A stretch of 62,645 nt of DNA, filler included, from Vermamoeba vermiformis (Eukaryota): the NCBI GenBank assembly GCA_045837725.1. It is 5 parts of 5 records of this genome, joined end to end, with 100 filler letters (N's around TTAATTAATTAA, not from the genome) between each part and the next. Parts side by side here need not be neighbours in the genome. Positions count along the whole stretch, not along the records: positions 23,279 to 34,186 come from JBEWZL010000240.1; 4 more parts are not named here. The stretch is one strand, 5' to 3'. The position numbers were made by a program, and so were the translations under genes. The notes beneath the pieces are model-generated. The model did not search any database. It saw nothing but the letters and a program-made list of their open reading frames with translations, and was not told the DNA's origin. Of the stretch, positions 7,466 to 47,601 are shown piece by piece (position 1 is the stretch's first letter; every line of letters begins with the position of its first letter).

Positions 7466-9937
7466 GTTTATATGGACGATATTATCATTTTTGGTAGAAA
7501 TCTCGACGAACACTTCAACAACCTCGAAACCGTATTTGGCGCTCTCGCAAGTGCTGGTATCACGCTCAAACCCAGCAAATGTCGCTTCTGCCAACGTGAA
7601 CTGCCCTTCCTTGGTCACGTGGTTTCCGAAAAAGGAATTGCAACGGATCCGTCAAAGATTGCAAAAGTCCGCGACGCTGCAGTACCTAAGAACATTCATG
7701 AATTACGCTCCTTCCTTGGTCTCTCTGGATATTATCGAAAATTCATCAAGAATTACGCGAAACACGCCGAGCCTTTGGTCAAACTCACCAGATCTGATAC
7801 GAAATATCAATGGACACAAGAACAGCAAGCCTCATTCGACAAACTCAAAGCCAAACTCGTCAAAGCTCCTATTTTGGCCTATCCCGACTTCAACAAGCCC
7901 TTCACGCTCTACACTGACGCCTCATCCGTTGGACTTGGTGGAATTCTCAGCCAAACTTTTGACGACAAGCCTCGAGTCATCGCATATTGGTCCGAAACTC
8001 TTACCCCTGGTCAACGCTCATGGTCTGCCACTGAAAGAGAATCGCTAGCTATGGTTCACGCTGTCAAATACTTCCGCTATTTCCTTATCGGAAGGAAATT
8101 TCAACTCGTCGTTGATCATCATTCATTAGTCTTCAAAATGTCTGATGCGAACTCTAAGCTCATCAAACACGCCATTCAACTTCAAGAATATGATTTCGAC
8201 ATTGTCTACAGATCCGGAAAATCTCACACTAATGCCGACGCTATGTCACGACCTCCTATCGTCACCACCGAACTCAACAATACCCAAGAAGAACCATTAC
8301 CCTTTTCAGAAGAATATTTCCGTAAAAATCAACGCCTGGATCCCACGATTTCCTACATCTGCGACTACTTCGAGAAGAAGATCGAGCCTGCTTCGCAGAA
8401 AGAAAAGCTACAACTTCAGCGCATCACTGCCGACCTAGTAATAGAAGATGGAATATTATATAGAATTTGGAAACCCTTTGGACGCGCCCTAGACGAACAT
8501 CGACAGATCTTCTTGCCGCTGCATCTGCGACCGAAAATTCTCAAGTTCTATCACGACTCTCTATTTGGTGCTCATCTTGGATTCTTCAAGACACTCAACA
8601 AAATTCGCGAACGCTTCTATTGGTTTGGTATGCTTCGTGACGTGCATCACTATGTCACATCCTGCGAATCCTGCACGCGAAGAAAAGTTTATGGAAAACT
8701 CTATGGAAAACTCAAGACTATTCCAATCACCGACGCCTTCGACACTATTGGAATGGACATCCTTGGACCCTTCAAAGAATCACGCAACGGCTACAAATAC
8801 ATTCTCGTCATCACTGACTACGCTACTAAATGGGTTGAAGCCTTCCCGCTCTTCAGTATCTCATCAGAAGACATCGCCCGTATTTTAGTCGAAGAAATTG
8901 TTTGCCGCCACGGATCGCCTGGTCAGATCATCACGGATCAAGCTGATAATTTCAACTCCGAAATGATTCAACAAGTCTACAAGCTGCTCAACATGAAGAA
9001 AATCCGCACTGTTGCCTATCACCCTCAAACCGACGGTCTCACGGAAAAATTTAATCACACTTTGGCAAAAATGCTCACGCCTTATGTCAACGAATCACAA
9101 GACGACTGGGACGAATATCTCCGCTTTGTTCTCTTTGCCTACAACACTGCCGTTCATGAATCGACGAAATTTACGCCGTTCTTCCTGCTCTATGGTCGAC
9201 ACGCGAAAATGCCCGTGCCCTGGGATCACATCTCGCCGCCTCCTCAGATCCACGACAGTTATCAAGGTTATGCTAAAGATATGCTCAATCGCCTAGCCAT
9301 TGCCAAGAAGATTTCGAAAACGAACATCACGAAAGCGCAAGCTCATCAAAAGAAGAATTACGACAAGAAGAAGAAAGACGAAAAGAAAATTCCGCCTGAC
9401 TCAATAGTTTGGTATAACAAATACAAACTTGATGAAGGTACTACTCACAAGCTTGCCTACAAAAACGATGGCCCCTTCGTCATTAAGAAAATCGATGGAC
9501 TCAATGCCGAGATCGCGCTCAAAGAAAATCCCGCTTATGTCAAACGCGTCAACGTGTCACAACTCCGCATTCAGAAACCGCGCCGCGCCGAACTTGAAGA
9601 GAATGATAGTTTGTCTTCTACCGACAAACCGAACTCACCGCCGCCTACAATCGAAGAAGAAATCTTAAGTGAGAAAACGCCTGTCAAACGTCAACGTCAA
9701 TCAACGGACAATCAACTCGTGCAATCGCTCCGCCTGATTCAACAATCCATCAAACCCACGTCATCACTCGCTCCTCTCAAGAAGAACATTAATCAACTCG
9801 TTGGACTCTCATCAACGTACTCCCGCTCTACTTCAGCGAAAGAAAACAACGAGAAGTTGGTACGCAAGTGCTCTACACCCGCCGAACTGATAAGTTTGAT
9901 CGATCACTTCATTCAAACTTACGCCTCAGAGGACTGA
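7466..9937 (+). CDS. pol: Ty3/Gypsy pol, 5'-truncated (end of RT, RNase H, integrase)
   Basis: Open frame begins at VYMDD, with an in-frame stop at 7457. RNase H motifs LYTDAS and TERE. Integrase HHCC and DDE (GMDILGP, TDQAD, GLTEKFN). Confidence 0.95.
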   Translation, partial: VYMDDIIIFGRNLDEHFNNLETVFGALASAGITLKPSKCRFCQRELPFLGHVVSEKGIATDPSKIAKVRDAAVPKNIHELRSFLGLSGYYRKFIKNYAKHAEPLVKLTRSDTKYQWTQEQQASFDKLKAKLVKAPILAYPDFNKPFTLYTDASSVGLGGILSQTFDDKPRVIAYWSETLTPGQRSWSATERESLAMVHAVKYFRYFLIGRKFQLVVDHHSLVFKMSDANSKLIKHAIQLQEYDFDIVYRSGKSHTNADAMSRPPIVTTELNNTQEEPLPFSEEYFRKNQRLDPTISYICDYFEKKIEPASQKEKLQLQRITADLVIEDGILYRIWKPFGRALDEHRQIFLPLHLRPKILKFYHDSLFGAHLGFFKTLNKIRERFYWFGMLRDVHHYVTSCESCTRRKVYGKLYGKLKTIPITDAFDTIGMDILGPFKESRNGYKYILVITDYATKWVEAFPLFSISSEDIARILVEEIVCRHGSPGQIITDQADNFNSEMIQQVYKLLNMKKIRTVAYHPQTDGLTEKFNHTLAKMLTPYVNESQDDWDEYLRFVLFAYNTAVHESTKFTPFFLLYGRHAKMPVPWDHISPPPQIHDSYQGYAKDMLNRLAIAKKISKTNITKAQAHQKKNYDKKKKDEKKIPPDSIVWYNKYKLDEGTTHKLAYKNDGPFVIKKIDGLNAEIALKENPAYVKRVNVSQLRIQKPRRAELEENDSLSSTDKPNSPPPTIEEEILSEKTPVKRQRQSTDNQLVQSLRLIQQSIKPTSSLAPLKKNINQLVGLSSTYSRSTSAKENNEKLVRKCSTPAELISLIDHFIQTYASED

Positions 9938-21146: not shown

Positions 21147-23178
21147 GAGTGAGTCTCCGATTTTGTCCCAAACCCCCAATTTTGTCCCAAACGATTTTGG
21201 ACTAAAATTTAACAATAATTTATTTTAATACTTATTTAATGGAGTGATTTCAATACAAATAGATAAATAATAAGTGAATACTTGAATTACAGTTGATTTA
21301 ATCGTGCAATTCGCCTTCATCACTGGCCAGATCGGATCTTTCTTCGCTCAGATCAGATCCGCATTCAGCAGCATGCTCATCATGAATATCTCGTTTTTGA
21401 CACTTCTTGCATACTTGATAGCTATTACATGAGGTGCAGACCCAAAATTTGTGCTTCTTGGTATAGATACGACGGCAAGGTGAGCACGTCCTACTAATCA
21501 CATCACTCTGTTTGTCAAGTTTGCGTCGCTTGACGAGCTCTTGTCGCTCTTCTTTCTCCTCTTCTCTCTTTCTCTTCTTGTCCTCTCTTTCTTTCTTCGC
21601 AAGTTCTTTAGCCTCCTTCTCTTTCAGTTCTTTTTCCTCCTTCTCACGGGCATAGATCACCAACTGCTGGCCAGTCACCAATTTATTCCGCTCATTGGCA
21701 CGTACTCGCTTGATAGGAGTCTTGGTTTGATTAGGTATCAAGGCCTCCTTAAGTATCAGTGCCATAGCTTTAACTTCTTCATCTTCACTGGTGTGCAGTT
21801 GAGGTTTTGTGTCGAACATGTACATGTTCTGAAATTTCTTGCTGATAAGTGCACTATCGAATGGCCAAATGCCTGTATGTCGAAATCCTGCCTTAATGAC
21901 CTCTTTATCAAATATATTGGACTTCTCCTCCGTGATAATGTCTTCAATAACAGAGTGCAGGGTCTCTCCAGTGAGGAGCCGTCGCATTCTTTCAAGGTCT
22001 CTCTTGACACGCATCTTGCGTTTGAACGAGCCAAAAATCACGTCGTCAAGAGGTTGAAGCAAATGAGTTGTATGTGCTGGTAGGTACAGGGGCTGTATAT
22101 CAGAATCTAATAGCAAGTTGATGCTGGTCAACTCCAGGTGGGTGGAGTGGCGGTCAAGAAGTAAAAGAGCTGGTTGTCCTTGCTTGAACGCTGAAAGTCG
22201 CTCCACGAGTCGCGCTATTATTTGCTTCCACAACTCATTTGTAATAAAGCCATTAGCTGTTGTGGCATAATAAGTTGGTATAGTGCTGCGAGTATATCTC
22301 AGCTCTGTAGTGACGGGAATCGAATTCTTCTTTTCGTTGCCATTTTGTGACATGTCCTTGTAGATGAGCACTATCATCCAAACACGACCAGATGCTGCAA
22401 CAAATGGAAGTATAGTGCGTAGATGACTCTTGGGAGTACTCAATCTACCCTGCTTTTTCGAATTTGCACTCGTTAGAATCTTCGAACTTTCTCCGTCAGT
22501 AAATTTACAGGGAGATTCGTCAGCGTTGATGATGAAGTCGTCCGTGTAACTTTTCTCTTCTAGTAGCCTCTTGTATTCTTTCACAAATGACTCAATAATA
22601 TCAATAGTGACAGAATTGACACGTCCCATGTCGAGGTCTTTACCAAACGCGTGAGAGATGCGATCTGAATTGCGGATCAGAAAATTGCTAAACCAGTGAT
22701 CGCCTCGCCAGTCTTCAGGGAGCTCAAATATCTTACGTACAAAACTAATGAATACACTTCTCGACAGAGCTATTCCGCTTGCTGAAAAAGCTAAAATGAT
22801 GCTGCATAGTCTTTTTTCTTGCTGATTGGTGAGCATCTGATTTCCATGTTTCTTCTCTTTATTCTTTTGAGCCCGCTGGTAGGCTTTGCGAAGTGTTTCG
22901 AATTTATTGGGACTATTCCGCGTCAAATCGCGAATAATTTCGCTAATTGTCTCGCCGTTTTCTGAAATCCGTTGATTGATCTCATGAATTTCGTTTTCAT
23001 ACTTCGCCATTACTGGTCAGAAAAATTATAAATAAAATCAATACTATTGAACAACAAGCTGTCGTGTTCGTGTGCGAAGCAACTTATTGAATGCCGTTGG
23101 TAAAATAATTTGCGAAATTACGCAAAAAAATCGGTTGGGACAAAATCAGGGGTTTGGGACAAAATCGGCGACTCACTC
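21147..23178 (-). mobile_element. pogo/Fot1-like DNA transposon, 2032 bp, apparently complete
   Basis: ~53-bp TIRs GAGTGAGTC(T/G)CCGATTTTGTCCCAAACCCC.., each with two ATTTTGTCCCAA direct repeats. TA at 21145-21146; the right flank is lost in the gap. Confidence 0.93.
21298..23010 (-). CDS. DDE_1 (DD35D) transposase with CENP-B-like HTH and C-terminal Cys-rich finger
   Basis: NADES, LLDRHSTH, LPAHTTHLLQPLD, with 35 residues between the second and third D. Intact 570-aa ORF. Confidence 0.95.
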   Translation of the reverse strand: MAKYENEIHEINQRISENGETISEIIRDLTRNSPNKFETLRKAYQRAQKNKEKKHGNQMLTNQQEKRLCSIILAFSASGIALSRSVFISFVRKIFELPEDWRGDHWFSNFLIRNSDRISHAFGKDLDMGRVNSVTIDIIESFVKEYKRLLEEKSYTDDFIINADESPCKFTDGESSKILTSANSKKQGRLSTPKSHLRTILPFVAASGRVWMIVLIYKDMSQNGNEKKNSIPVTTELRYTRSTIPTYYATTANGFITNELWKQIIARLVERLSAFKQGQPALLLLDRHSTHLELTSINLLLDSDIQPLYLPAHTTHLLQPLDDVIFGSFKRKMRVKRDLERMRRLLTGETLHSVIEDIITEEKSNIFDKEVIKAGFRHTGIWPFDSALISKKFQNMYMFDTKPQLHTSEDEEVKAMALILKEALIPNQTKTPIKRVRANERNKLVTGQQLVIYAREKEEKELKEKEAKELAKKEREDKKRKREEEKEERQELVKRRKLDKQSDVISRTCSPCRRIYTKKHKFWVCTSCNSYQVCKKCQKRDIHDEHAAECGSDLSEERSDLASDEGELHD

Positions 23179-23278
23179 NNNNNNNNNNNNNNNNNNNNNN
23201 NNNNNNNNNNNNNNNNNNNNNNTTAATTAATTAANNNNNNNNNNNNNNNNNNNNNNNNNNNNNNNNNNNNNNNNNNNN
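23179..23278. other. Artificial scaffold linker (N-run with TTAATTAATTAA)
   Basis: Exactly 100 nt with a six-frame stop spacer; the same pattern recurs three more times. Confidence 0.97.
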
Positions 23279-23284
23279 CGAACT

Positions 23285-23504
23285 GGACTCATCCGTGTCC
23301 TGTCCGAGATCGGCGAAATAAGTCGATCCTTCCTCGGTTCTCGCTGAGGATTAGTAGGCCCAAACGTCTACTAATATTCCTTCGTGGAGAGTACTCTACG
23401 AAGCGGATTAATTGATCAGGCTTGGGGTGCTAACATCCCTAAATCAGATCGATCAAATCCCAAACTGCGACTAAAGTTGCTACTTGAAGCTTATTAAGGC
23501 TTCA
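23285..23504 (+). ncRNA. Putative structured RNA (or ssDNA) element: array of ~8 consecutive hairpins
   Basis: Stems 23308-23328, 23331-23350, 23351-23374, 23380-23403, 23405-23460, 23467-23480, 23485-23504. Six of the stems each contain a G-U pair on the + strand. May be cut by the gap. Confidence 0.6.
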
Positions 23505-23604
23505 CATAATTTTGGCGTCATAAATAAATTATAATGGTAATTATTGGCGACTAATTTTTAAATTTTCGAAGATTTGCTGATCAAATCCTTTTTAGGCCGC
23601 GCCA

Positions 23605-26600
23605 ATGAACTTAGAGGCCAAGGTCTCTTTATACTTGGAAATATTAATACTCGCGCGCAATCGCAATTGGAAGATGAACACGCCCAGTCAAGAGCTTGCA
23701 AGCGAAATTATTGGGTGCATCAAGCAGTACCCTGCAGATTCGGAGCGTGACGATTTCATATTTTACTTCGTGGTATTCTATTACCATAAAATGCTACCGC
23801 CACACGTGCCCGGCCGCAAATATTATGGAACTTGGTATCGCAAGTATCGGCAGCAGATTGCGAACGCGCTCAACATCGATCTCGACGATAAATTCTGGTC
23901 CAACTTCATGAACGTCATGAAAGCCCTCCCGAATACGTTGCGACGCGTCAAAACCTATTGCTGGTCAGAAATATCAGCAAATGTGGCTAGTGCTCACTCA
24001 ACTTCTGACGCTTCGATCCACACGGCCTACTACACTGTTTGGTGTGCCCTTCACTACCACTACGTGCATTGGGAGACCTTCGAAAGGCTTCAAGTATTAA
24101 TGATGTATATTAAGACCCAAGGAGTTGCCTGTGATTACTCGTGCCCGTTGTTTACTGGTGCCTCGCTCGTAGAACGACTGGTTATCGGCGCGCAATTACC
24201 TACGACAACTGCGCGGAAAAAGAAGGACTTCTCGCAGTCTCTAAACAAGCAATTTGAAGACATGGATTTTGTTGCAGGCTGCGATGGCTGTGGCGCCCAT
24301 TGGTTTCACTTGCAAGCTTTTGACGACGCAACACCATTGTACAAACCGGTGCCTAACCCGAAGCCCGGCTCCAAACGTCCGCGCGATAACGCTAACGAAT
24401 ACACCGATGTTCCGTCGAAGCGCCAACGCATTGAAGAACCCGATTCGCCTCGAATCAATCCTACGGAAGAAGACCGTTTGAAAGAGCTCGAGGAGAAGCA
24501 AAAGCTAATCGAAGAAAAGCAGCAGCAAATCAAGTCCCTCGAAATGAAACTTGAAGCGAGTGAAGACGAGTTGTCAAGGATTGAACGCTCGTTAAGGAAT
24601 GAGCTGCAAGAGGCTCAGCGCCAATTGCACGACAAGAACAAAGCTGTTGAAGTACTCTCGCGTCAAATCCAAGAAGAGAACAGTATTGCCGAACAGCACG
24701 CTCGCACGCAGGCACGATACGAGCAGCGAATTACCCTCCTGCTTGAAACGCAGAAATCGTTAGCTTCTGAACTCGACAAGGCGACGGTCCGCGTTGGTGA
24801 ATTAGAAGCAGAGCTCAGAAATACTGGCATAATGAATCAACATATGGGGCTAGATTCATCATTTCTTGTGTCAAATCTCCTATTGTTCTCACCCCGTCGT
24901 ACGGACTCGCCCAATGCGTCTACTGCAGCGGATTCGTCTGGATCGACTGCTAAGAACACTGCCGCAGACCCCACTCCTACAAAGAAAGCACCCAAAGACT
25001 TGGACAAAGAAGGAATGACAGAGCTTCTGTCAAATCATCATGCTACTTTCGCCGATGATTTCGTTTGGTGGCTACTGCCGCGCGAAACTCAAAAGCTGCG
25101 AGATCTGTTACTCACTCACATTTCTTGGGTAAGCCTTATTACGATCATAAAATAGACAGATATTAACCATTTAATAGTTTGAAGATTCTAATCGCCACTT
25201 TGATGTGAGTTCAGTCAATTTGGCGGATTGCAAATCCGATCAAGAAAAGTACGAGAAAATTCTGTACGCCTATTTGGTAAGTTAAAATTTAATTCAATAT
25301 AATTGTTAACATGTTTTTGAAGCAAGCAAATGCTATTCCCGACTTCATCTATCGCCTTGGTCTTTATGTAAGTACAACTCTCGCATTTAAATCGAATTAA
25401 CATTAATTGCAGCCACGAAACGGCCCGATGCAAACCTTTTTGAAAGGTCTGCAATATTGGAACCAACGTAATCCACCTAATGGAATGCCTACTGCAGTCA
25501 TTTGGACCCTTCCTTCTTTGGCTTGGGAAATTGTGTTGGACGAGCTTGATCCAGCATCGCTGCTTCAATTCGCCTGTGTTGCTCGTGATAGTTTACAGCT
25601 AGCCTATTCGACGTTTTCGTCACGAAAATGGTTGCAGATTCGATCGCATCCAGCTTGGGCAAACGTTGCTTTGAATATCCTGCGGTCTTCTCCAACAAGT
25701 GCAAAAAACATCCTGGGGTTGTCTTTGACGCTTCACGGTCTACGCATATTTAGAAATCTAATAACGGAGGAGCTAGGCGTTTCTTGGATCTCTCTGCAAG
25801 ACTTTAGTGTTCGAGCCTCAGATTTCATTACCCTGTCACGTGTACCAAAGCTCTCGGCCCTCGAACTGGTCAGAATGAAGGGCACCATTGCATCAAAGGA
25901 AAGGGAAGACATCCACCCTGACCTTAAAAGGTAACAACTAAGATTACGTACAATCGATTCTTACTTTTATCGGCAGCTTGACGAAGTTGCACGTACTTGC
26001 TTGCCATCATACCGAGAACAAGTTGGTCGCCGAGCTGGCCAAGATCTCGCTGCCAACTCTTTCTTGCTTGATCATCACTGGCATGAACGCCCCGTTAAGC
26101 TCGTACGGAGTTCTTGACAGAAGCCTTATAAAAGGCCTATTGTTTTTGGATTTGCGGTACGGGAACTTCGCTGAAGGTGCTTACCGATCCATTTCGGCAA
26201 AGCATCAACTCAGTGACATAATGAGCAGCATATTCAACGCATCACCTGGCTTGATTGGACTACGCTTGTCTATTCCCAACAAAGCTCACGATAGATCAAC
26301 GATAGCCCTGCCTAATAAGTTGCCCAGCCTTCTCAAGTACCTGGAGTTAGCCGGTATCTCAGGCTGTCCATCAATCGACCTGCGTGCAATCCGATCATGG
26401 ACAGAATTACGTGCGTTGTCCTTGGTCGATGTCACCTCGATCAGTCCAGATAAAGGCCCTCTAACGACAGCAGCGGGAACCGTTGCATTGTTTGTGGCCA
26501 GCGACGACCTTGTCTTCAGTTCGGACTCTGAAGGCGAGCGCGTGCCACTGCCTCCAGTTCAAACGAACTTCAATCCACCACTAACTCCTCGAGTGCATAT

Positions 26601-27023
26601 TGGAGGGACCACAACTCCAAGTACGTTCTTCGTACTCTCTACTTTATTAGAGAACAAAGTGTAAGTATCGCGATCTTATTTCCATTCGTTATTAAATTTT
26701 TTTTTTCCAGATTTGGTTGGCCAGCGAGTTGCACTCCACCGAGGTACATCTATACTCCCAATCGATTCGATGAATTGTTTATGGCAGAGGTAGCATATCA
26801 ACTTAGTAACCTGCCTTTCCATCACTACAACAAAGTGGTCACCCCCGATCCCTTGGAACCGTGCTTGTTCCCTGTGCCGCGACCTGCAGAGACTTCTCCG
26901 GACATGGCCCGTTACCTAGATGCTATTAACCGGCCATCAGTTTATACCCTGCCCGACAAGATTGAGAGAGACTTCATGCACTCGCCGTTAATCTCAATGT
27001 TTATCTCTAAACAAAAACTTTAA
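23605..27023 (+). CDS. Gene A of contig 2: large multi-exon protein (unknown N-terminal domain, coiled coil, internal F-box, degenerate LRRs)
   Basis: ORF 23605-25155 splices in frame through two small exons (FEDSNRH.., QANAIPDF..) into 25407-25934 (F-box LPSLAWEIVLDELDPASLLQFACVAR), then 25978-26664 and 26775-27023. The start could be 23674. Confidence 0.65.
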
Positions 27024-27109
27024 AAATTAAATGGCGAAATTTCAGCTGCTCTGGCCAATCACAACACTGCCCGCCAATTTGGCGAAAATTTAATGCGCTA
27101 CTAACTGGG

Positions 27110-27310
27110 TTGTTTCTTTGCTTAGTTTCGACAACGTGAACACAAGCACAGTACAACTCGGTAAGTAGCGCAGTACTTCTCTCGGACATCTCTGAGAGGT
27201 GAAGGGCCACTCACTCTTCATATTGAGACACTACTCAATGCGAGCTGCTCCATCCGGCAGTAACTCGCCTGCGGCCAATTCTGGAGCCTGGTTTTAACCC
27301 TAGACCCAGA
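27110..27310 (+). ncRNA. Second array of consecutive hairpins, directly upstream of gene B
   Basis: Stems 27163-27178, 27179-27198, 27199-27221, 27222-27239, 27240-27268, 27280-27310, plus a looser one at 27110-27157. Wobbles are G-U on the + strand. Confidence 0.5.
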
Positions 27311-27313
27311 CTG

Positions 27314-29492
27314 ATGAGCGACAACTTGAGAGAGGTTCGAGGCATTGCATCGTGCATACGAGAAAATAGGAGGAGAGCTGCCGAAGAGACCTCACCTAAC
27401 CGCAACCCATCCAGAAAACGGAAACGTGCCTCCTTGTCCCCTAAGGCCAGAAAGCAAAGAAAATTGCTACCGTTTACTCCTGTTCGCAAATCGCCGAAGG
27501 TAAGCGGCCCGTGTACCGAAGCTTGGGAACATTAACTAACTTGCTGCTATTTTAGGCACCCCAAAAATCTCCCGAAAATATCTCTAAATCCGCTCGCGCT
27601 CTTAGAGAACGAAATCCTCAACTGAGTTATGCTGGTACGTTTATTGTTTTGATTAACTTCTACCAGTTGGTTAATTTGATCCGCTTTAGACCCGTCCCTG
27701 AGCTCTATGTCGGAAGAATCCTTGCCTATCGGCCAAAGTGCCGAAATCGTTACTTCTGAAGATGAGGAGGGCGGTGTTAACTTCGACTCGCTAGCTCTGG
27801 CCCAAAAGGATTGGGAAGATCTCCACATCCGGGATGAGCCAACCACCGAAGATCTTGCTTTCCTGGCGCCCGAAGAAGAGGTCGTAAACGACGAGGCCTC
27901 TTTTGAAGAGGGTGAAGAGGAATACCAGTCAAGCTTCGAGGATTCTTCAGCTGAGGCAGAAGTGCAGAGCAACGCATCTAACGCGAACCAAAGTTCTACC
28001 AACAAGCCTGTCGCGTCTGTGCCAGCCGAAGAGCACCAATCCGTTGCCGGTAGCAATGAGCTAGGGAGTGAGCAACCTGATGACGACGCCAAGCCCGAGC
28101 CTGAGCCCGAGCCTGAGCATGAGCCCGAGCATGAGCCTGAGCTTGAACCCGAAGACAACGCCGGCGAACAGCAGTCAGAGAACGAAGCCGATGACGCTCA
28201 AGCTTCAACTGAAGCTGGCGAAGTCGTCAAAGCAAAGCGCAAGAAGGCTAAGTCATCCAAGCCGAAGTCTAAGGACAAGAGAGACAAGCACAAGAAAAAG
28301 AACAAGAAGAAAAAAAAGAGCAAGAAAATAATGGTTGAAGTGACTCCGCAGGAGAGTGACGAGGAAGATGAGCCGAAAGAAGGCTCAAAGCCACCCAAGT
28401 GTAGGGTTACCTTCATTATCAACCTTTAAATAAACACTCGTTAATTGTTCGATCATGTAGTCCTTGCTGGCGTTGAAGAGGCTGAGCAGCAAAGAGAACA
28501 GCTTGAGGCAGATACTTCGCCGGAGTCGAAGTCGAATGGTCGCACGCAGTTTGTCCGCTCGATGTGCCGATTGTTGGAAACTCTGTCACAACACGGAGTG
28601 TCTCTTGTTGTCAGCGCTACACACAAGACAGGAAAACTCAAGGCGCTTGTTTTTGGCGACACTGAGTTTTCGGTTAAAACGGCACCGACTGTTGATATTG
28701 AAGTCTCAAGACCAACACACAAAGCCAAAGATAATGGATCGTTAGAGCAAATGTGTAAGTAATAGGTGCATAGATTTGCAAGTCAAATGATTTACCGTTT
28801 GCGCAGTTGGCCTTCCTAAGTCCGTTGTGGATGCACTTCGAAACTGCCGGTTTTCGCAATCTGCTAGGGACAGTGTGTCTAAACTATCTGCACGACTTGC
28901 TGTAGACAACACTGCTGTAGATTCAGGTTCTGTTAGTTTGTTTGTAACACAAGAAAAACTCCCAGAAATGGACTTCGATGAGAGGACCTCAACACACATC
29001 TCGGCAGTTCTCACCGATCTTGAGCGCCTACACATTGCCCATGTTGACGTCACTGTCATGATCAAGCTAAAGATGTTCTATCTTGGCGGAGTGCTTGACT
29101 TGCTTGCGACAAAGTACCGCGGTGAGCTCAGATCAACGGCTGGTGCCAACGTTCCGGATCGCCTACTGGAGGGAAAGGTCAACGAGAGGTTGTACGACTT
29201 GTTTGGCAAATCCGTCAAGGATGGGACTCTTGCGGGAATGACTCCTGGCGAATACGATACGCGCGATGCAATGTCTTGCCCTCCTCAGTCGCCCGTCAAA
29301 CGTGATGGCTTCTGCACTTGGAAGTGTCGCTTGGCCAAATTTTATGCAGTTTGCAAATTCTGCAAAGATTTACTGTATTCGGACCTGTCTTATACATTTA
29401 TTGCGAGATCTTTTGGCGATTTTGAATCCGCTAAACAGATGTTGCAATTTATCAAAGACCATCCGGAAGAGTACCCAAATTGGAATTATTAA
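27314..29492 (+). CDS. Gene B of contig 2: multi-exon unknown protein (basic N-terminus, acidic/EP-repeat region, poly-Lys NLS, globular C-terminus)
   Basis: ORFs 27314-27535, 27707-28429, 28445-28762 and 28827-29492 join in frame through GT-AG introns. Confidence 0.65.
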
Positions 29493-29510: not shown

Positions 29511-32500
29511 ATGGCATTTCAAGACGTAACAGGCTTTTACGAGAATGTGCATCCGACTTCGGGTAATTTTTTTTATTTTAAATTTTTCCGTACAATAACT
29601 TACATTTATTCTATTATAGTGCTGGGAACTCCATTCAAGAAAGCGCTGGATGACATCTTCCATGCATCAATCTCCCCCGAAAAAGAAAATCTCGCTCCCG
29701 ATCTTCCAATGGAACTTTTGAATGACGATCTTGCTATTGACGAGCACTTACTGTCATACGAAGATATTGAAATGAACCCCAGTGACTTTCTCTGCTCACC
29801 TGAAAAAACTGGTATGATCTTGTTTGCTGCGATATCCCGTAACTCACGGATCCCGCAGACAATCGCGCTAACGAAGACTGGGAAGATACTGTTCCTCAGG
29901 ACGATGGTGTAATGCTCGAAGAGGAGCACCAATCTCAAGCAGCTCCTACTTTTAATGCCAAGCCAAAGCGCAAGACTGTTCGGGCTGTTACGGGACAATA
30001 CCACCGACGCTCTTCAAGAAATAGGGCTAGTCATCACCGAGCTCGGACCCACTTCAAGCGTCCTACTAAGGAGCGTGCTCAGGACGGTCATAAAGCAATT
30101 TCAATTCGTGAGCTGACCAATAGCCAAGAGCGCGATGCTTCAAGTTCTGAAAGCCTGGAGCCAATGCAGGTTGACCACGACCCAGCAGTGCATAATGAAT
30201 TGTCACTGTCAAATGAAGAAGAGAAGCAGCTGGTTCGAGATATGAGTTTAACGTGGCAAGCTCGAGGGACCGACAAGTCAATATTCGATATTATGTCCTT
30301 TGCAAAGCTCTCGTCTGTTGTGCGGTTGAAATTCTTACGTCGCTCGGAACAGTAAGTATTCTTGCTACTAACTGAGCTTTGACTAACGCTGTTACAGATC
30401 CTACCTCCAAATGAGAGGTGAGAGTGTTAGCTACAGCGAAAGTTACCAACACTCGTTGCACGATGCCTTATCAAGTAACAATCTCAAGTCATCAGTTTAC
30501 ACTACCAGTTTGGAGTTGAATTCAGTCTCTGTCTCCTCGGAGGAGGATTTTGGGCACGATTTCAAGTCCAGTTTACGCTGGATGAACTACCATAACCGTT
30601 TTGTACCCGCGTGCTATGTGAATAAGTCTCTCGATTGCCAACTTGCGCACTCCATCGACTTTGACTTTGTTGGCTTTGCGTTTGAGTCACTGGCCTTTAT
30701 CAAGTCAAGTATGGAGATTGTCTTCGTTACAGAGCTCGTCAAATCAAAGATGCCTAGTTCGAAGATCTTGTGGCAAGGCAAGGCGGTACATAATATGCTT
30801 AATACTTTACTTGGGTGCGTATTATTTCTACAACAAGCATCGACTAACTAACACTTCTTCTACAGTACTGTTGATGAGAACTTGCCCGTGTATGTCGCTT
30901 TTCCTGACATCAGAGACCGAGATCCGTCAGAAGTCATACATGAATTCTTTGAACAAGTTGTTTATGAAGGTAACTTGGATACAACTTTAACAGCATTTAT
31001 TAACGAGCTCATCCCAAGGGGTTTTATCTTCTCCAATGTATCGTCAGACTAAGATCGCTTTGCCGTACCAAAGTTGTATCGAGAACAATGAGCCTGGTGC
31101 TATTGAGGCGTTGGAGGATTCTACATTGCCGTACTTGCAGGTGGCATTAGAAGATTACTTAGCAAGAGACAATGCGTAAGGTTCTGCACATATTTAGGTG
31201 TGCGACTAACAAACTGTTCAGGGTGAAGCCAATTTTCATCATTCAGCAGTACGGCCAAAAACGAATTCTGAAATCCGCGGAAGAGCTTCACAAAATACAT
31301 GCGAAGCACGCAGCCTTATTTGACTTAACTATGGTCTACACGCACAAGTTGGGTCAGAAGGCAATGTCTTACATTGATATTGCTAGTGACATAAGGTAAT
31401 ACGCATTGACTCAAGTAATTCTTTCTAATCACGATGCAGTTGCCACGATGATGCCTACGTGACAATGTTTTGGAATCGCAATTTATACACACTCTTATTG
31501 GATTGCTCAGCGTCACCCTTTGCAGAGTTAATGGTGCCGAACAGTACAATAACTAGACATGCACGAGCCCAGCGAAGTTTCTACTCGTCGCCGATGTAAG
31601 TGAATGATGCTTGTTTAGCCAGTTGCTAACACCAATTGCCTTACAGAGTGCGGGAGTATCCTAATTATGGCATTGGATCTCTCGCAAGTTGCGTAATCGA
31701 GTACAAGAACGAAGCAGTTCTACTCAGGAAGCTCAAGTTGTATCAGCGAGGAAGCCAAGAGTTTCGTCACGCAGTTCCATTCAGTAATGTGTGGCATGCG
31801 CTTTTGGCTTTCCCATTCGAGAAAGTGAAGATGCTTGTATCCGGTTCCGGTGTTGCGATATCAGAGGCAGTACTCAGAAGGTAAGATGCAATATTTATCT
31901 AAAACTAAACAGTAACTCAATTGGATTAGACTACGCGAGGAGGCAGCTGCTGTTGCGTCGCGCAAAGAATTCAATCGGGCAAACGCTCAGTATTCAACCT
32001 TCATGCCCCAGAAAGCGTACGGGCCACGCGTCGAACTTACACTTCAGAATGCAACATGGGATCAGCTACACAGTGCCTATCAACTGCTTGATGAATTCAG
32101 TTTGGCCTGTGCACTTACTTATAATAGCCTTAAGGCGTTGTGTCTTGAGCGATTGGTTCCATCCGAGTTGATGCGATGCAGTCCTTTGCAAACTGTTTTA
32201 ACCAAGACAGTTTGCTTATTTCCGAAAATGTTTACTGAGAGCATATCCGCTTATTTATATTTACTGCTCGACCGAATTATTGCTGGTAAGTTCCAGTCTC
32301 TAATCCCTTACGTTGTTAACTTTGTCGTGACAGATCGCAAGGCAGGCTTAATTGAATACAATGAACATTGGGTGCGCCTTGCTTTCGTATTACAAGATCA
32401 GCTGACGTACCTTTGGACTGGATCGATACAGTCATTGGTATTTCCGAAGCTGTTTCTTCGATACGAATTGGATCACGCGGTGCTCTCACAAGGCCACTAC

Positions 32501-33902: not shown

Positions 33903-34160
33903 AGAATCCCAGTAGCCCAGAATTTTAGGTGCCTGCTCATGGAATCCTAGGTGCCCGGAATCCTAGGTGCCCACTCATGCGCACGGAATTCTAGGTGCCC
34001 AGACATGTGTGCAGAATCCTAGGTGCCCGGGATCCTACGTGCCCATCTCATGGAATTCTAGGTGCCCAGTCACGGGATCCTACGTGCCCAGGATCCTAGG
34101 TGCCCACTCATGCCTGCACGGAATTCTAGGTACCCAGTCACAGAATTCTAGGTGCCCAGA
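33903..34160 (+). repeat. Subtelomeric repeat array, ~11-12 copies of a 16-bp unit RGRATYCTASGTGCCC with 0-13 nt spacers
   Basis: Directly visible copies, e.g. GGAATCCTAGGTGCCC at 33941 and 33957. Confidence 0.9.
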
Positions 34161-34171
34161 ATCCAATTACA

Positions 34172-34186
34172 AGGGTTAGGGTTAGG
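34172..34186 (+). repeat. Start of a TTAGGG telomere tract at the contig end
   Basis: AGGGTTAGGGTTAGG immediately before the gap; only ~2.5 units visible. Confidence 0.75.
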
Positions 34187-34286
34187 NNNNNNNNNNNNNN
34201 NNNNNNNNNNNNNNNNNNNNNNNNNNNNNNTTAATTAATTAANNNNNNNNNNNNNNNNNNNNNNNNNNNNNNNNNNNNNNNNNNNN
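34187..34286. other. Artificial scaffold linker
   Basis: 100-nt N-run with TTAATTAATTAA. Confidence 0.97.
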
Positions 34287-34411: not shown

Positions 34412-37400
34412 CTACTTCGTAGCGCTGGTAAGCTCATACTTGAAAACGTTAGCAAATTCGTCGATCCAGTTCTTCAACAAATCTTCCAATTGTTTCGTAT
34501 TTTCGCATTTCTTGACGCAGGCAATAAAGTTCTCTTTTCTCGTTGAATTCTTAACGTGCAGCGGTATGATGTCACGCGACAATTGAGTTTTGATCGCGGA
34601 CAATTTCTTGATCTCTTTTCCGGCGATAATTGCGTGAATGCCTTTGATCTCATCGTGGAATTTTTCTAATTTTTTCTTTTTCTTTTCTTTTTCTTTTTCT
34701 ATTTTTTGTTTTTCTTTTTGATCCACTCGATCTAGGCTTTCACTCTCGCTATCGGAATTATCACTTGAATTATCTTCGTCTTCATCATTATTATTCTCTC
34801 TCCTATCATTCAAGCGTGTTTCTTCTTCGTCTTCATCGCTAGAAGGTTCTTCTTCGTCGATCTGATATTTCTCGAACGAATCCGCTTGTTCGTTCCACTC
34901 GCTGACGTTGTTAAAATTAATTCTCTTCAATTGTGTGATATTGAACGTCTTCTCGATAGGATTTCCTTCTAGATCTTCTAGCTTGTAATTTAACTCTGAT
35001 AACTTCTGACGGATTCGAAACGGTCCGTAGAACGGTCGTTTGAATTTAAAATCGCCAGGCTTCTTGATCGCTTGCACTATCACGTAATCATCAACTTCAT
35101 ATTCAACGTTTAATTTGTCCTTGTTATATTGTCGCTGCTGTTCTTCTTTCGCCTTGAGCGTCGCTATCTTCGCTGCCTCGTGCGCCGTTTTTAACGCACT
35201 AATTAAATCATTAATATACTGGTGATTGCTAACGGTCTCTTTCATCTTCGCGCTAATAATAGTGTCCATCGCTATGAGAGGCTCTCGCCCGTGCAACATA
35301 AAATACAGAGAATAACCTGTCGCTGAATGCTTCGTTCTTCGATACGCTAATAGAACAAGTGGAAGCCACTCGTCCCAATCTGACTGTCGTTGATCACAAA
35401 ATATCGTAATCTGGGTCTTCAACACTGAATTCAATCTCTCGACTTGTCCGTCGCACTGAGGATGATACGCTGTAGTCTGCATCTTCTTAATCTTCATTTC
35501 TTCTAATAGCTCGTTCAATAAGTGTGACGTGAACTGACTTCCTTGATCTGATAGAATCTTCTTTGGCAATCCGTGTCTCGGAAAAATCTTCGTTACTAAT
35601 ATTCTCGCGACTTCTCTACTTGTTGCTTCTTTCAATGCGTACGCTTCAGGCCACTTGGTGAAATAGTCCGTAATTACTAGAATATGGCAATTACCTTTCT
35701 TCGAATCGCGAATCGGACCAATAAAATCAATTCCAATAATCTCCCACGGCTCTGATGCTGTGATTGACTTCAATAGTCCTGCCTTCTTACTTCTTGACTT
35801 CTTGCTGAGTTGACACGCAACACATGCTCGCACAAACTTCCTCGTGTCCATTGTCATCGTCTCCCAATAATATCGCTGACGCACTAAATCTAACGTTCGT
35901 TGAAATCCAAAATGTCCTGATGTCAAATCTGAATGACAACTGCGTAAAACCATTCCGCGTAAATTGAACGGAATAACTACTTGAAACGCTGCTCCTTTCA
36001 CTGAATTCTCGACTCTGATTAATGTTCCGTTGTCGTCCAAGAGAAAATGATCCGATGCTGCTGCTATTCTTGCCTTCTCAAACTCGTCTTCTGGTTATGT
36101 TCCGTCAACTAAATAATCAATTAATGGTTTGAGTAGACTGTCACTGCGCTGTTCCGTTGCGATGTTGAAATTATCAAATATTGCCATCACTTGCTGCACT
36201 ATTGGTTCTTGGGATAACGTATCAGCTGCTACGTTAGTCTTGCCAGATCGGTAAAAAATATTGAATTTAAATTCAGATAGATCAATAATCCATCGCGCTA
36301 ATCTTCCTGTCGGCTCCTTCATTGACTTCAACCATGTTAGGCACTGATGATCGGTCCAGATGTCGAACTCTCGCTGGTGTAGATATGCTCGGAAATGCTT
36401 CACTGCCTTCACTACTGCTAAGCACTCCTTCTCAGTCACGCTATAATTCAATTGATGCTTCGTCATTGTCTTCGAAAAATATGCAATTACTTGTCTTCCT
36501 TTCTCTCCTTCTTGCAATAATACGGCTCCTATTGCAAAATTGCTCGCGTCTGTCTCCAGGATGAACTTCTTTTTAAAGTCCGGGAATGCCATTACTGGCT
36601 CCTGTGACAAAAGCTTCTTCAATTGCTCAAATGCTGTCTTACAATCTTCTGTCCAGTTGAATGCTGACTTGTTGCTCTGAATCTCGTGTAGTGGTTTCGC
36701 GACTGTGGAATAATTGGGCACAAACTTTCGATAATAATTAGCCAGGCCTAGGAATCGTTGCAATTCTGTTGTGTTCTTCGGTTCTTCTGCCTTCTGTATT
36801 GCTTCTATCTTCTCGGGATCCATTGATAAACCTTTCTGTGACACAATGTGACCTAGAAATTTCACAGAATCTTGACCCCATTGACACTTCTCGGGCTTCA
36901 CCTTGAAATTCGCTTCATCTAATCTTCTTAATACTTCTTCAATATGCTTAATGTGATCTTCGAATGTCTCGGAATAAATCAAAATGTCATCTAAATATAC
37001 GAGACAATACTGCCATGATATTCCTGTCAATAATACGTCCATTGCTCGCTGAAAAGTTGCTGGCGCTCCTGCTAATCCGAAAGGCATAACTTTAAACTGT
37101 AAATGTCGATTGCGTGTTGAAAATGCTGTCTTCTCCTTGTCTTGTTCTTCTAACAATATCTGCCAATATCCTGTGATTAAGTCAATTGTGCTGAAAAATC
37201 TCGCCTTGCCTAACACGTCTAAGTAATTGTCAATCCTTGGTAACGGATAGGCGTCAATGATTGTCTTCTCATTCAATGCTCTAAAATCAACACAAAATCT
37301 CAATGTTCCATCCTTCTTCTTCACTAGAATTACTGGTGAGTTCCACGCACTGGTGCTCTCTTCAATGACTCCTTGCTTCTCCATCTGTTCAACTTGTCTG

Positions 37401-38413
37401 TCAATCTCTTCATGTTCTGCATGTGAAAGTGGGTACTGTCGAATCTTCTTAGCATTGTTGTCCTTGGTTGGGATTGTGTGCTTCACAGGTGTGATACCAA
37501 GCTTGCTAGGCTTTTGAAATACTCGTGATCTCTTCTGAAACACATGCCATAACTCTTCCTTCTGTTCTTCTGTCAAATGTGACAACTTCATCTTCTCTCG
37601 CAACTCCTTCATGTCATCTTCTTCACTGTTCTTGACGTCCTGTAGGGTTAATATCTCTCCTTTGGCATTACGACACTCGGCAAAGGGTTCCAAGTTAGCT
37701 ATGGTTCGATTACGCCACAACTTGACTTGCGTATCCGATGCGTTAATTAATAGCACGTGCACTTCATTATCCTTCACATTGACTACAGTACGGCCTATAT
37801 ATACTTTAGGTCGACACCAGTCATCACGCTCTACTACCATTGCTTGCTTCAATTGTGCTGCATTCTCTGTCTTACATTTGATAACTCGCATCTGTCTTGG
37901 TGGAATAATAATACTCTTCTTAACTGTTGCTGTGTCGTACTTGGGCTGGTCAAGATAGTTGATCTCAATCTTCACTGCTGAACCTTTGTCTGGTGTAATT
38001 GTACGAGTCTTCAAGTCCATGTTCAAAGCAAACTGATCCATGATATCAAGTCCCACTAAAATGTCCTTACTGAAGTTCGGGACATAATAGAACTGACACG
38101 CATGTACCACGCCACCGATCGCGACGTTCGCTCGAACAAGACCTTTGACTTCGATTTGATGTTGACTTGCCGAAGTTAATGCTGTCTCAAACGATTGAAT
38201 AATAGTCTTATCTTTCAATAACTTAAATGTACTTTCATTAATAATCGAAGCACTAGCTCCTGAGTCAATGATTGACTTTACATTCTCGTTGTCTATTGAT
38301 ACAATTGCGTTCATTGGCTTGTAATAGTTGATTAATAATATCTCTGAACGCTGAGGTCTGCTGTCACTCGTGGACGAAGAACGACCTACTTCTTCGCCAC
38401 TGTCTCTTTTCCC
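34412..38413 (-). pseudogene. pol: Gypsy pol (protease, RT, RNase H, integrase) with one in-frame stop at 36095-36097
   Basis: IIDSGAS, YLDD, LETDAS, HHCC and DDE motifs. ORFs 36095-38467 and 34412-36040 share a frame and are separated by a single TAA. Confidence 0.92.
38354..38413 (-). promoter_or_regulatory. -1 ribosomal frameshift signal (slippery heptamer + pseudoknot)
   Basis: G GGA AAA in the gag frame (38413-38407), a 6-nt spacer, then stem GTGGCGAAGAA/TTCTTCGTCCAC. Loop AGGTC can pair with downstream GACCT. pol is in the -1 frame. Confidence 0.75.
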
Positions 38414-39576
38414 GCATTCTCGGGACAGTCCTTCTGAATGTGTCCTTGCTTTTGACACGTGAAACAAATGCGCTGTTCAACGAACTGATGACCACCGCGA
38501 CCACGACCACGACCGCCAAAACCACGGCCTCGACCGCGACCACGGTAATTCGATGCAAAACGCTTGATGAAGTTGACCTCCTTCTCTGACAACTGCAAGG
38601 TGTTGACATTCGAGCTCACAGTAGTTCCTGCGTTAGTCTTCTCCGCGTGCCAAATAGCACGTGTTCGAACAATAACTTCATGTAAAGTTTTAAATTTATC
38701 TGATTCTCTTGAAACCAAATTTCCAACGGACTTAGGATGTAACGCGTTGATAAATAACGACATCGCAATTTGAGGGTCAAAAGTTGTTTCGGTAGATTCA
38801 ATTTCATTGTAAAATCGTAAAATAAATGCTTCCAAATCTTCCGTTGGTGACATTTCAATTTTTAAAGTCTTTCGTAAAGCGATGTTACCTTTAACTTTGT
38901 CACCGAATCTCTGAATGAAGCTCTTCTTCACTCTTCGCCATTTCTGTCGCGTGTGCTGATCCAATGTCTTCCAAAAGACCGCTGATACGTCATCCAACTT
39001 ACAACGTACCACGAACAGAGTTTCGTCTTCTGTCCACGACAATGATTTCTTGAAGGCTGAAATCATTTCGCACCAACGCTGCACTCCAACGCTCTTCTTT
39101 GTGCCAAAAATCGGCAGTTGCTCATCTGAGGGTGTCTTGAACCCTTGTCTGACGACGTAGACCATCTCACCGTCGCTATCACTGTCAGAGTCAGAGTCTG
39201 GTTCGTCCTCGCGAACCATCTCGGCGTTAGTTTTTATGGATTTATTCAAATTTGTGAACTGTTTATTTGACACATCCGATTTAATTTCCTTCAATTGAGG
39301 TTCTGGTTTGACCTCTTTTAATTTCTCGTCACCGCCATAGGAAATTTCTTGACGGGATGTATTATTTGAAAAATTACCAGATTCTAAACCGAAATTCAAT
39401 TTATTTAAAATCTTTTGAAATTGATCATCTAAACTGTTTATACGTTTTCTTACATCATCAGTCAACAAGCTCATTTGTTGTGCAACTTGTTCGTTATACT
39501 TCGCCAATTTACTTTCGATGAGATCTACCATATCTCCATCTCGCGAGTCTAAACTATCGTCATAATCGTTGCTCAT
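38386..39576 (-). CDS. gag: Gypsy gag with CCHC zinc knuckle
   Basis: ATG at 39576 (MSNDYDD), RG-rich region and CFTCQKQGHIQKDC. Confidence 0.92.
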   Translation of the reverse strand: MSNDYDDSLDSRDGDMVDLIESKLAKYNEQVAQQMSLLTDDVRKRINSLDDQFQKILNKLNFGLESGNFSNNTSRQEISYGGDEKLKEVKPEPQLKEIKSDVSNKQFTNLNKSIKTNAEMVREDEPDSDSDSDSDGEMVYVVRQGFKTPSDEQLPIFGTKKSVGVQRWCEMISAFKKSLSWTEDETLFVVRCKLDDVSAVFWKTLDQHTRQKWRRVKKSFIQRFGDKVKGNIALRKTLKIEMSPTEDLEAFILRFYNEIESTETTFDPQIAMSLFINALHPKSVGNLVSRESDKFKTLHEVIVRTRAIWHAEKTNAGTTVSSNVNTLQLSEKEVNFIKRFASNYRGRGRGRGFGGRGRGRGGHQFVEQRICFTCQKQGHIQKDCPENAGKETVAKK

Positions 39577-39585
39577 CTCAACCGT

Positions 39586-39599
39586 GTGCTTCGCTACCA
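39586..39599 (-). promoter_or_regulatory. Primer binding site, probably initiator tRNA-Met
   Basis: TGGTAGCGAAGCAC, 2 nt after the LTR end (..TTACA). TGGTAGC is typical of an iMet PBS. Confidence 0.75.
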
Positions 39600-39636
39600 A
39601 ATGTAATGAACGGTGTTGTTTATATCAAATAATACA

Positions 39637-40691
39637 AGACCAGTTATGCTAAAACTCCAGCGCCATATATAGTAGGTAAAAAATGTTATATTTACTACAA
39701 TTTTAGGTGATTTTACATGTTGTTATACTCATTAATAAATGGTTGCAGTAGCTGTTTATCCTTATCACTTAGATCACTTATATTCTCCCAAGTCCAGTCA
39801 TTTTCTTTTGGATAATGTTGCCACTGTACTAATGCTGTTTGCTTTGCATGATCATAACCTCTGATGTGCAAAACAGTAGAAGCTTTTGGCTGTTCCTTAT
39901 GTGTTCGCTTGAAATCATCTAACTTATGTTGGGCATCTTCTAACTGATCTTCTGTCAGCCACTCATCATATTTGTCATCAGACCAATTGTTATACTTGTC
40001 ATCCTTAAATTTAACCTTGTATTGAATTGAGCCATTAACTTGACGACACTTAAGAATTTCTCTAACTTCAAATACTCTGGAGCTGAAGTCCCATTCATCC
40101 CACTTGTCTTCATAATCAAGTTTGATTTCTGGGAGATGAGCAATTGTTTTCTTAATTTGGCGCATTACATTAATACGTTGGGATGATAGAGGAGTTGTAA
40201 CAAATGATGGCAACTGTTCTGGAAATGAGACTGTCTGCTGATGTTTTCTTAAAAGTATGGGTTCACTCCATGCATCATCGCTCTTGACTCTCACTCTTAC
40301 ACTGCCTGGATGGTCTTTTGAGAACCAAAAGTGATAGTTTTCTGATACTTTTAATCCTTTAGGTTTGGTGTAATTACTGTCTAAAAACTTCTTGAAGTTT
40401 TTTGCATTGCAATTCCTGAAGTCTTTGATAGTCTCACGATAAGATACACTTTTTTTCACATTCTCTATTAATTGTTCAATGTTCCATGCATCAAGTTTAA
40501 TGATCTCCTTGCCAATCTTTCCAAACCATCGATCTGGACCAAATTTGGTATGGCCAGGAATCATGAAGTCCAGTTTAATATCATCTGCCCATCCAAGATC
40601 AATACACGAACAAAAGAATTTGAGGACATGCTGATTCTTATTTTGACCAGAACAGTTGTCTGCAGCAAAATGTAGAAGTCGATCGGTTTCC
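39637..40691 (-). mobile_element. 3' end of a Sola/DUF7869-like DNA transposon inserted in the Gypsy 5' LTR
   Basis: LTR identity stops sharply at 39636. The transposase stop lies 76 nt beyond that point. Confidence 0.75.
39713..40691 (-). CDS. Sola/DUF7869-like transposase C-terminal part with two tandem chromodomains (cut by the gap)
   Basis: AADNCSGQNKN, MIPGHTKFGPDRWFG. Chromodomains FEVREILKCR..QYKVKF..DEWLTEDQL and TVLHIRGY..LVQWQHYP..WTWENISDL. Confidence 0.88.
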
Positions 40692-47592: not shown

Positions 47593-47601
47593 AGTTGGGG
47601 A

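Follow-up and report, generated by a model that had tools for sequence, protein, structure and literature searches.

Layout of the window and structure of gene 1

The DNA analyzed here (the window, 62,645 nucleotides in all) consists of five contigs tied together by four identical artificial joiners of 100 nt, each of which has the non-biological composition 44 N, TTAATTAATTAA, 44 N. The region of interest lies on the contig at 23279-34186 (10.9 kb). In this contig, a string of hairpins (array 1) precedes a spliced gene (gene 1), and a second string (array 2) lies between gene 1 and the predicted first coding exon of a further gene on the same strand (gene 2). Array 1 begins one base past the joiner at 23179-23278; because this joiner sits directly upstream, the 5' end of the leader is cut off in the window. 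A DDE_1 transposase ORF found by Pfam to the left of the joiner (21298-23010) is not a true neighbor of array 1, since the joiner separates the two contigs.

The DNA of the window is eukaryotic. It contains myosin head exons split by short introns (Pfam), Ty3/gypsy elements, and short introns of 46-59 nt that are spliced out in RNA contigs. The nearest named relative of one of the myosin exons comes from the amoebozoan Planoprotostelium fungivorum (myosin IK, 80% identity), and closer matches, up to 89%, are solely metagenome proteins without a name. On this basis, we describe the host as amoebozoan-like.

A total of 24 public sequencing runs were listed as matching 23280-24000, four of which were compared over 23280-25300: X5, a root metatranscriptome with an RNA-Seq record; X2, presumed to be RNA; X3, a DNA-type run; and X24, a raw poly(A) RNA run with 0 reads on 23280-25300, a result that has no bearing either way. 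The contigs of X2 and X5 are referred to as RNA contigs. The features discussed below are as follows.

23179-23278, 34187-34286, 40692-40791 and 47602-47701: artificial joiners
23280-23533, + strand: 5' leader of gene 1 (exon 1, partial), covered by X2 and X5; carries array 1
23534-23536, + strand: probable start codon of gene 1, context AUAAUG|G; final three bases of exon 1
23537-23595, + strand: intron 1 of gene 1, 59 nt, GT..AG; missing from the X2 and X5 contigs
23596-25128, 25178-25276, 25323-25367, 25413-25930, 25977-26660 and 26711-27023, + strand: later exons of gene 1, with the stop codon at 27021-27023
27072-27310, + strand: array 2, seven hairpins, several with zero linker
27314-27499, + strand: predicted first coding exon of gene 2 (MSDNLREV...), by-eye reading from the earliest ATG that follows an in-frame stop

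The joiner, intron 1, the ATG at 23534 and array 2 are additions to a preliminary description of this DNA.

The model of gene 1 comprises seven exons and stays open for 1064 codons from the ATG at 23534. The introns after the first are 49, 46, 45, 46 and 50 nt long. Intron 2 (25129-25177) is seen as a joint in an RNA contig and removes the stop of a naive 516-aa ORF, and intron 3 is indicated by the loose end of a contig after 25276, which matches 25323-25352 exactly. The last three introns were predicted from their GT-AG ends and the open frame alone.

The protein was not assigned to any Pfam family (the match to 'Tower', at 16.7 bits, is below the cut-off of 25), a profile search of PDB revealed no relative, and the best Atlas score (0.80) is under the useful range. 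Among 5.8 billion proteins of 283-903 residues, we detected one relative with 96% identity (P0001). A representative library of 1.84 billion proteins gave 15 matches, most of which are short fragments that align to the N-terminal ~283 residues with 29-37% identity. Judged by these comparisons, the gene 1 protein is lineage-restricted. An F-box-like motif was noticed in exon 5 by eye only, and Pfam did not report one.

Hairpins of array 1

The MFE structure of 23280-23510, taken as + strand RNA, consists of eight local hairpins lying side by side with linkers of 0-6 nt. An A/U-rich spacer separates the last of them from the probable start codon.

23285-23300, + strand: hairpin 0, weak, 4 bp, 8-nt loop, -4.5 kcal/mol
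23308-23328, + strand: hairpin 1, 7 bp with 1 G-U, loop GAAAUAA, -8.6 kcal/mol (- strand mirror -3.2)
23332-23349, + strand: hairpin 2, 7 bp, loop UCUC, -8.3 kcal/mol (- strand mirror -3.0)
23350-23375, + strand: hairpin 3, 10 bp with 1 G-U, loop CCAAAC, -10.2 kcal/mol; zero linker to hairpin 2
23380-23403, + strand: hairpin 4, 10 bp with 1 G-U, loop AGUA, -13.1 kcal/mol
23405-23460, + strand: hairpin 5, long imperfect stem, 22 pairs with 3 G-U, loop CUAA, -19.0 kcal/mol
23467-23480, + strand: hairpin 6, 5 bp with 1 G-U, loop UAAA, -3.7 kcal/mol; - strand mirror unfolded (0.0)
23485-23504, + strand: hairpin 7, 8 bp with 1 U-G, loop AUUA, -8.0 kcal/mol
23505-23533, + strand: A/U-rich spacer from the last hairpin to the start codon, holding none of the hairpins of the string

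All seven stems of the preliminary description were recovered in place with their short linkers, and the weak 4-bp hairpin 0 was found in addition. That description had called the stems unrelated to one another, and a repeat search of the window indeed found no repeat common to them. It had also claimed one G-U pair on the + strand in each of six short stems. This holds in the registers used there, which were checked by hand and contain no other mismatch; for hairpin 2, the register was 23331-23350, whereas the MFE structure places it at 23332-23349 with two G-U pairs. In the MFE structure of the full leader, a few weak pairs are drawn across the spacer, and the mean unpaired probability over 23505-23545 is 0.54.

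The + strand of 23280-23510 has an MFE of -86.3 kcal/mol, compared with a mean of -55.8 (sd 4.6) for dinucleotide shuffles, which corresponds to a z-score of -6.70, and 0 of 200 shuffles were as good. For the - strand, the MFE is -64.4 kcal/mol (z-score -1.32) and 19 of 200 shuffles were as good. The comparison with shuffles on both strands, which the preliminary description had suggested, thus agrees with its claim of a structure acting on the + strand, and this is the sense strand of a spliced mRNA (see below). When the + strand was folded as DNA, the z-score was -3.86. Each of the eight hairpins, folded alone, is more stable than its own - strand mirror, with + strand energies from -3.7 to -19.0 kcal/mol; individually, the hairpins are just moderately stable. 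The MFE pairs have a mean pair probability of 0.83, and 152 of the 231 nt are paired.

We also scanned the whole window in 200-nt windows on both strands (1533 positions, 3066 strand-windows), with energies regressed on GC. Windows of array 1 ranked second and fourth of the 3066 in this GC-corrected scan. Plain counts of hairpins per 250 nt did not separate array 1 from A/T-rich low-complexity DNA, and energy z-scores were used instead.

With regard to strand asymmetry, the MFE structure of array 1 contains 10 G-U pairs versus one C.A 1x1 mismatch. A strand-neutral hairpin finder gave a G.T:A.C ratio of 4:0 in array 1 versus 246:248 in the remaining window. Taken alone, the G-U asymmetry has modest statistical weight. 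The base counts of array 1 (A 63, T 63, C 55, G 50) are without a G+T excess.

No Rfam family, including those of tRNA, snRNA, ribozymes, riboswitches, IRESs and miRNA precursors, matched at its gathering score anywhere in the window. In a search of 23280-23700 with E values up to 10, which reports noise only, the best match was Plasmid_RNAIII (21.4 bits vs a gathering score of 60). The weak Rfam matches to arrays 1 and 2 (Plasmid_RNAIII, a tmRNA fragment, snoZ163, AaHKsRNA82, mir-8338 and MIR7127) are all far under threshold and were dropped.

Transcription and variation of the leader, and a second hairpin string

The RNA contigs of X2 and X5 span 23280-23535, omit 59 nt with GT..AG ends and resume at 23595, from where they continue to 24008 (X2) and 23646 (X5). 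In the contig of the DNA-type run X3 (record 4, 23289-23648), the sequence of intron 1 is retained without a skip. Because the RNA contigs join array 1 across the intron to the ORF, array 1 is part of exon 1, within the 5' leader of a spliced mRNA transcribed from the + strand. Two features of a structured 5' UTR were observed: sense transcription on one molecule with the coding sequence, as seen in the RNA contigs, and a sense-strand fold beyond what composition would lead one to expect. Array 1 is very probably a transcribed and structured 5' leader. Of the possibilities that the preliminary description had put forward, the structured leader agrees with these data; a free-standing ncRNA conflicts with the splicing to a coding exon, and an ssDNA origin conflicts with the location in a spliced nuclear exon.

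The RNA contigs extend 40 nt (X2) and 37 nt (X5) upstream of 23280 and then stop. The ends of these two assembled contigs suggest a transcript start 37-40 nt upstream of 23280 and hence a leader of ~295 nt. The leader at 23280-23533 has stop codons in all three + frames. It contains 0 ATG in 254 nt, compared with 3.66 expected (P-value = 0.0088, 5000 dinucleotide shuffles), a pattern to be expected if the leader is scanned from the cap and under selection. The ATG at 23534 is the sole ATG of the spliced leader; it lies 30 nt past the end of the last hairpin and remains in frame over the splice (MAAPMNLEAK...).

Comparison of X2, X5 and X3 with the window revealed four substitutions in array 1 (23379, 23391, 23418 and 23481) and two indels (23328/9 and 23466), all of which fall on positions unpaired in the MFE structure. 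For the four substitutions, the probability of this outcome by chance is (79/231)^4, or ~0.014. Over 23280-23535, X2 record 1 differs by 4 letters (3 placed) and X5 record 13 by 3 (2 placed); the unplaced difference lies near a contig end or splice joint and could sit in a stem. The variants off the stems, together with the missing upstream ATGs, indirectly support selection on the structure of array 1. Alternatively, the near-perfect stems may have arisen recently in evolution and not have been maintained.

The depth of X3 is 58 over array 1 and 50 over the 3' part of gene 1. At a depth so close to that of gene 1, array 1 is not a repeat of high copy number. The 62.6-kb window contains no further copy. 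Protein-guided scans of metagenome, genome and viral contigs found no homologous leaders, and an exact 22-nt pattern of array 1 had no match in metagenome contigs. A match to the pattern of hairpin 4 in genome contigs (L001, from a bacterial MAG) was rejected as due to chance, as its flanks are unrelated GC-rich coding DNA.

Array 2 occupies most of the 290 nt from the stop codon of gene 1 to the ATG of gene 2 (27314). Its longest hairpin, at 27094-27172, covers 79 nt with 32 pairs. The + strand of 27000-27320 folds at -108.3 kcal/mol (z-score -6.92, 0 of 100 shuffles as good), and the z-score of the - strand is -3.55. Windows of array 2 ranked first and third of the 3066 strand-windows, with the strongest one at 27081, so that the two arrays together account for the four most extreme windows of the scan. 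No sequence repeat common to array 2 and array 1 was found. ATGs, which are missing from array 1, occur twice in array 2 (27093 and 27238), and with these array 2 matches a scanned leader less well. The best Rfam match to array 2 was mir-8338 (20.3 bits vs a gathering score of 80).

Both gene starts on the contig at 23279-34186 thus have a hairpin string upstream. As controls, we folded the upstream regions of two ORFs from a different contig, which gave z-scores of -0.29 and -1.39 and no such fold. A further control (31560-32010, upstream of an ORF at 32003) gave a z-score of -0.19, and by eye it represents internal exons and introns of gene 2. Because the regions upstream of the two other ORFs fold like shuffles, the architecture is not general. 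As the next gene downstream has an unrelated string of the same build, this type of leader seems to recur in the genome and not to be a one-off.

Possible functions and origins of the hairpin strings

A reasonable model is that the leader of gene 1 would fold in the sense RNA as eight independent hairpins, like beads on a string. A 43S complex would load at the cap and then melt the hairpins serially, and the AUG at 23534 would be reached past the last hairpin, after the A/U-rich spacer. The leader may therefore be a cis-acting brake whose output depends on helicase activity or conditions. We favor, with some confidence, the combined reading of a structured 5' leader of a spliced nuclear mRNA with a scanning brake acting in cis; the particular mechanism, in which the hairpins are melted one after another, is put forward more tentatively.

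Among known systems, the closest likeness is to structured 5' UTRs that hinder cap-dependent scanning, as in helicase-dependent mRNAs. That 5' UTR hairpins impede scanning is established (PMC11900008). Like such leaders, array 1 is a sense leader in which local stem-loops are stable and an upstream AUG is lacking, and its start codon lies past the last hairpin. It differs in being unusually regular, with eight near-perfect and unrelated hairpins 0-6 nt apart and no long-range pairing, and in that the neighboring gene has a second string of this kind. Our literature search found no report of a eukaryotic leader that is filled in this way by a series of unrelated hairpins, which is weak evidence of absence.

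Several other known arrangements were considered for array 1. Mimiviridae 3'-end signals that follow the 'hairpin rule' are also palindromic hairpins of unique sequence between genes, which act at the RNA level and have no common motif. They are, however, single hairpins at the 3' ends of viral transcripts, whereas the eight hairpins of array 1 lie at the 5' end of a cellular, spliced mRNA. A role as such a 3'-end signal was ruled out, as the same RNA contig goes on into the spliced coding exon. Clusters of extragenic palindromes that are transcribed as parts of mRNAs are likewise formed by bacterial REP/BIME elements and by MITE-like palindromes. REP and MITE families have a common consensus and many copies. 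A family of this type was rejected for array 1, which has no common stem sequence, no other copy in the 62.6-kb window and, in the one DNA run, a depth of 58 versus 50. A pri-miRNA or miRNA cluster, for which each hairpin needs a stem of ~20 bp or more that gives rise to an RNA of ~21 nt, was discarded because at least six of the eight stems have 4-10 pairs.

If the strings are not leaders scanned from the cap, they might be intercistronic spacers of a polycistronic transcript, serving as internal ribosome entry platforms or as punctuation for endonucleolytic processing, a reading that we consider improbable. It would account for array 2 nearly filling the space between two genes. In addition, X2 record 3 is 2242 nt long, 2118 nt of which lie past 25276, where the spliced remainder of gene 1 is just 1560 nt; if collinear, the record would extend ~560 nt beyond the stop, crossing array 2 and entering gene 2, as far as lengths can tell. 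However, a k-mer contig over two genes is not equivalent to a single molecule, and overlapping UTRs would be merged in the same way. The RNA contigs of array 1 from two runs end 37-40 nt upstream of 23280 without entering an upstream gene, and scanning from the cap is indicated by the fact that array 1 lacks upstream ATGs. As in viral and cellular IRESs, both arrays are long and highly folded RNA directly before an initiation codon, and array 2 lies between co-oriented ORFs. Known IRESs, however, fold into several domains that include junctions or pseudoknots, and they carry conserved motifs. By comparison, the arrays contain simple hairpins only, and neither array 1 nor array 2 has an Rfam IRES match. 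A broader form of this idea is that, in this lineage, strings of 7-8 near-perfect and mutually unrelated stem-loops, most with a G-U wobble on the sense strand, would occupy the entire space from a stop codon to the next AUG between some tandem co-oriented genes. They would then be not ordinary structured UTRs but a distinct class of RNA punctuation on multi-gene transcripts, with a role in processing, in internal initiation or in the insulation of neighboring genes; this we regard as unlikely. A source of small or stable RNAs, with hairpins excised and acting in trans in a miRNA-like manner, or with RNase III-type autoregulation of the host mRNA, seems distinctly improbable. The long hairpins at 23405-23460 (56 nt, 22 pairs) and 27094-27172 are near the size of pre-miRNAs, and the AGUA loop of hairpin 4 is of the AGNN type, which is a signal for RNase III (Rnt1). 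But at least six of the eight stems of array 1, with 4-10 bp, are too short for Dicer/Drosha-type enzymes, the Rfam miRNA match (mir-8338) is far under threshold, and the RNA contigs run unbroken from the leader into the coding sequence.

The hairpins may instead have no function and have arisen in a transcribed spacer by neutral inverted duplication at the DNA level, for example by template switching during replication, with the G-U pairs generated by an asymmetry of mutation linked to transcription, in which the non-template strand undergoes C>T and A>G changes. Short, near-perfect and unrelated stems are what young local inverted copies would be expected to look like, and the excess of G.T over A.C is numerically small (4:0 and 2:1 with the strand-neutral finder). 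RNA hairpins that arose by template switching have been documented (PMC8794818), and this process is a plausible origin of stems such as those of array 1. It would, however, explain origin and not function, and by itself it gives no reason to expect two dense strings located exactly in leaders, or variants that lie off the stems. Two strings of 7-8 hairpins, both right before an ATG on the sense strand and together holding the top four of 3066 strand-windows, are difficult to reconcile with a neutral origin, and random template switches are unlikely to be packed 0-6 nt apart just there. Moreover, the placed polymorphisms avoid paired bases, ATG is depleted, and the gene is without the G+T skew that a strong strand-biased mutation would leave. 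On balance, a purely neutral origin appears unlikely. An origin of ssDNA replication or transfer, or another structure acting at the DNA level, has next to no probability. The + strand does fold better than shuffles as DNA, but array 1 is an exon of a spliced nuclear mRNA, Pfam detected no adjacent gene of the Rep or relaxase type, G.T pairs add little to a DNA fold, and the excess over shuffles is greater for RNA.

Few cellular 5' leaders are structured so clearly and so simply as that of gene 1, in which almost the whole leader consists of discrete hairpins that can be mutated separately. If the strings control translation, they would offer a clean natural system, in a little-studied lineage, for examining how scanning ribosomes and helicases deal with serial obstacles. 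If they mark boundaries in multi-gene transcripts, they would represent a new organization of nuclear gene expression. If neither is true, they would be a striking case of mutation-born hairpins in transcribed DNA.

Composition of the window and its mobile elements

The window contains four identical copies of an artificial 100-nt joiner, each consisting of 44 N, TTAATTAATTAA and 44 N (positions 23179-23278, 34187-34286, 40692-40791 and 47602-47701), indicating that it represents five contigs strung together; contigs on either side of a joiner need not be adjacent in the genome. Several types of genes and elements with a known or probable relation to transposition, together with an adjoining ORF, were detected in these contigs.

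Known and probable transposition-related features and adjoining ORF
5959-7026, +: ORF with formamidopyrimidine-DNA glycosylase domains (Fapy_DNA_glyco, H2TH), adjoining retrotransposon genes
7472-9937, +, and 34412-39600, -: Ty3/gypsy-type retrotransposon genes
477-1370, 39713-40564 and 41663-42751, all -: three ORFs with the Pfam domain DUF7869
21298-23010, -: DDE_1 (pogo/Tc5-type) transposase ORF, 570 amino acids
58229-58321 and 59090-59178: terminal inverted repeats (TIRs) of about 90 nt (TTTATTGTTAACCGGGCTCAAATCCCCCCG...), flanking an element of about 950 bp
59402-59494 and 62557-62645: TIRs of about 90 nt (TTTATTGTTAACCGGGCTCAAATCCCCCCG...), flanking an element of about 3.2 kb

Zinc-knuckle gag, protease-RT-RNase H and integrase are among the Ty3/gypsy-type genes, whose nearest relatives were found in metagenome data (88-99% identity). 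In the glycosylase ORF, the H2TH domain scored 32.3 bits, slightly below the cut-off of 34.7 bits. The DUF7869 ORFs, two of which matched the Pfam family with an E-value of about 1e-39, look like a multi-copy transposase-like family; one of the three additionally has a C-terminal chromo domain. Immediately upstream of the ATG of the DDE_1 ORF, where the first contig ends (23135-23166), TTGGGACAAAATC occurs twice, 19 nt apart. The two TIR-bounded elements, of about 3.2 kb and about 950 bp, point to a DNA transposon accompanied by a short derivative of it.

Surroundings of the hairpin strings

Two further features lie in the contig that carries both hairpin strings.

27094-27172, +: long hairpin of the second string (79 nt, 32 pairs), of pre-miRNA size
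33920-34181: 61-nt unit (GAATTCTAGGTGCCC...) in three diverged copies, at the extreme end of the contig

All Rfam miRNA matches to the long hairpin were below threshold (20.3 bits versus 80). An ATTAAA hexamer was spotted by eye at 27026-27031, 3 nt past the stop codon of gene 1, the spliced gene that follows the first string. If this hexamer serves as the poly(A) signal, the 3' end of the gene 1 mRNA would fall at about the start of the second string. The 61-nt repeat region folds well on the - strand as well.

Telomere-type repeats

The fourth contig terminates in approximately 38 perfect TTAGGG repeats, located at 47362-47595. This tract is probably a chromosome end, the alternative being an interstitial telomere tract. 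A possible second case comes from X3, a public DNA-type sequencing run, in which one contig matches gene 1 as far as 24189 and then continues with TTTTTAGGGTTAGGG... in place of the gene. In addition, several variant contigs covering 23650-24560 are present in this run. Thus, a truncated paralogue of gene 1 may abut telomere repeats in the X3 organism.
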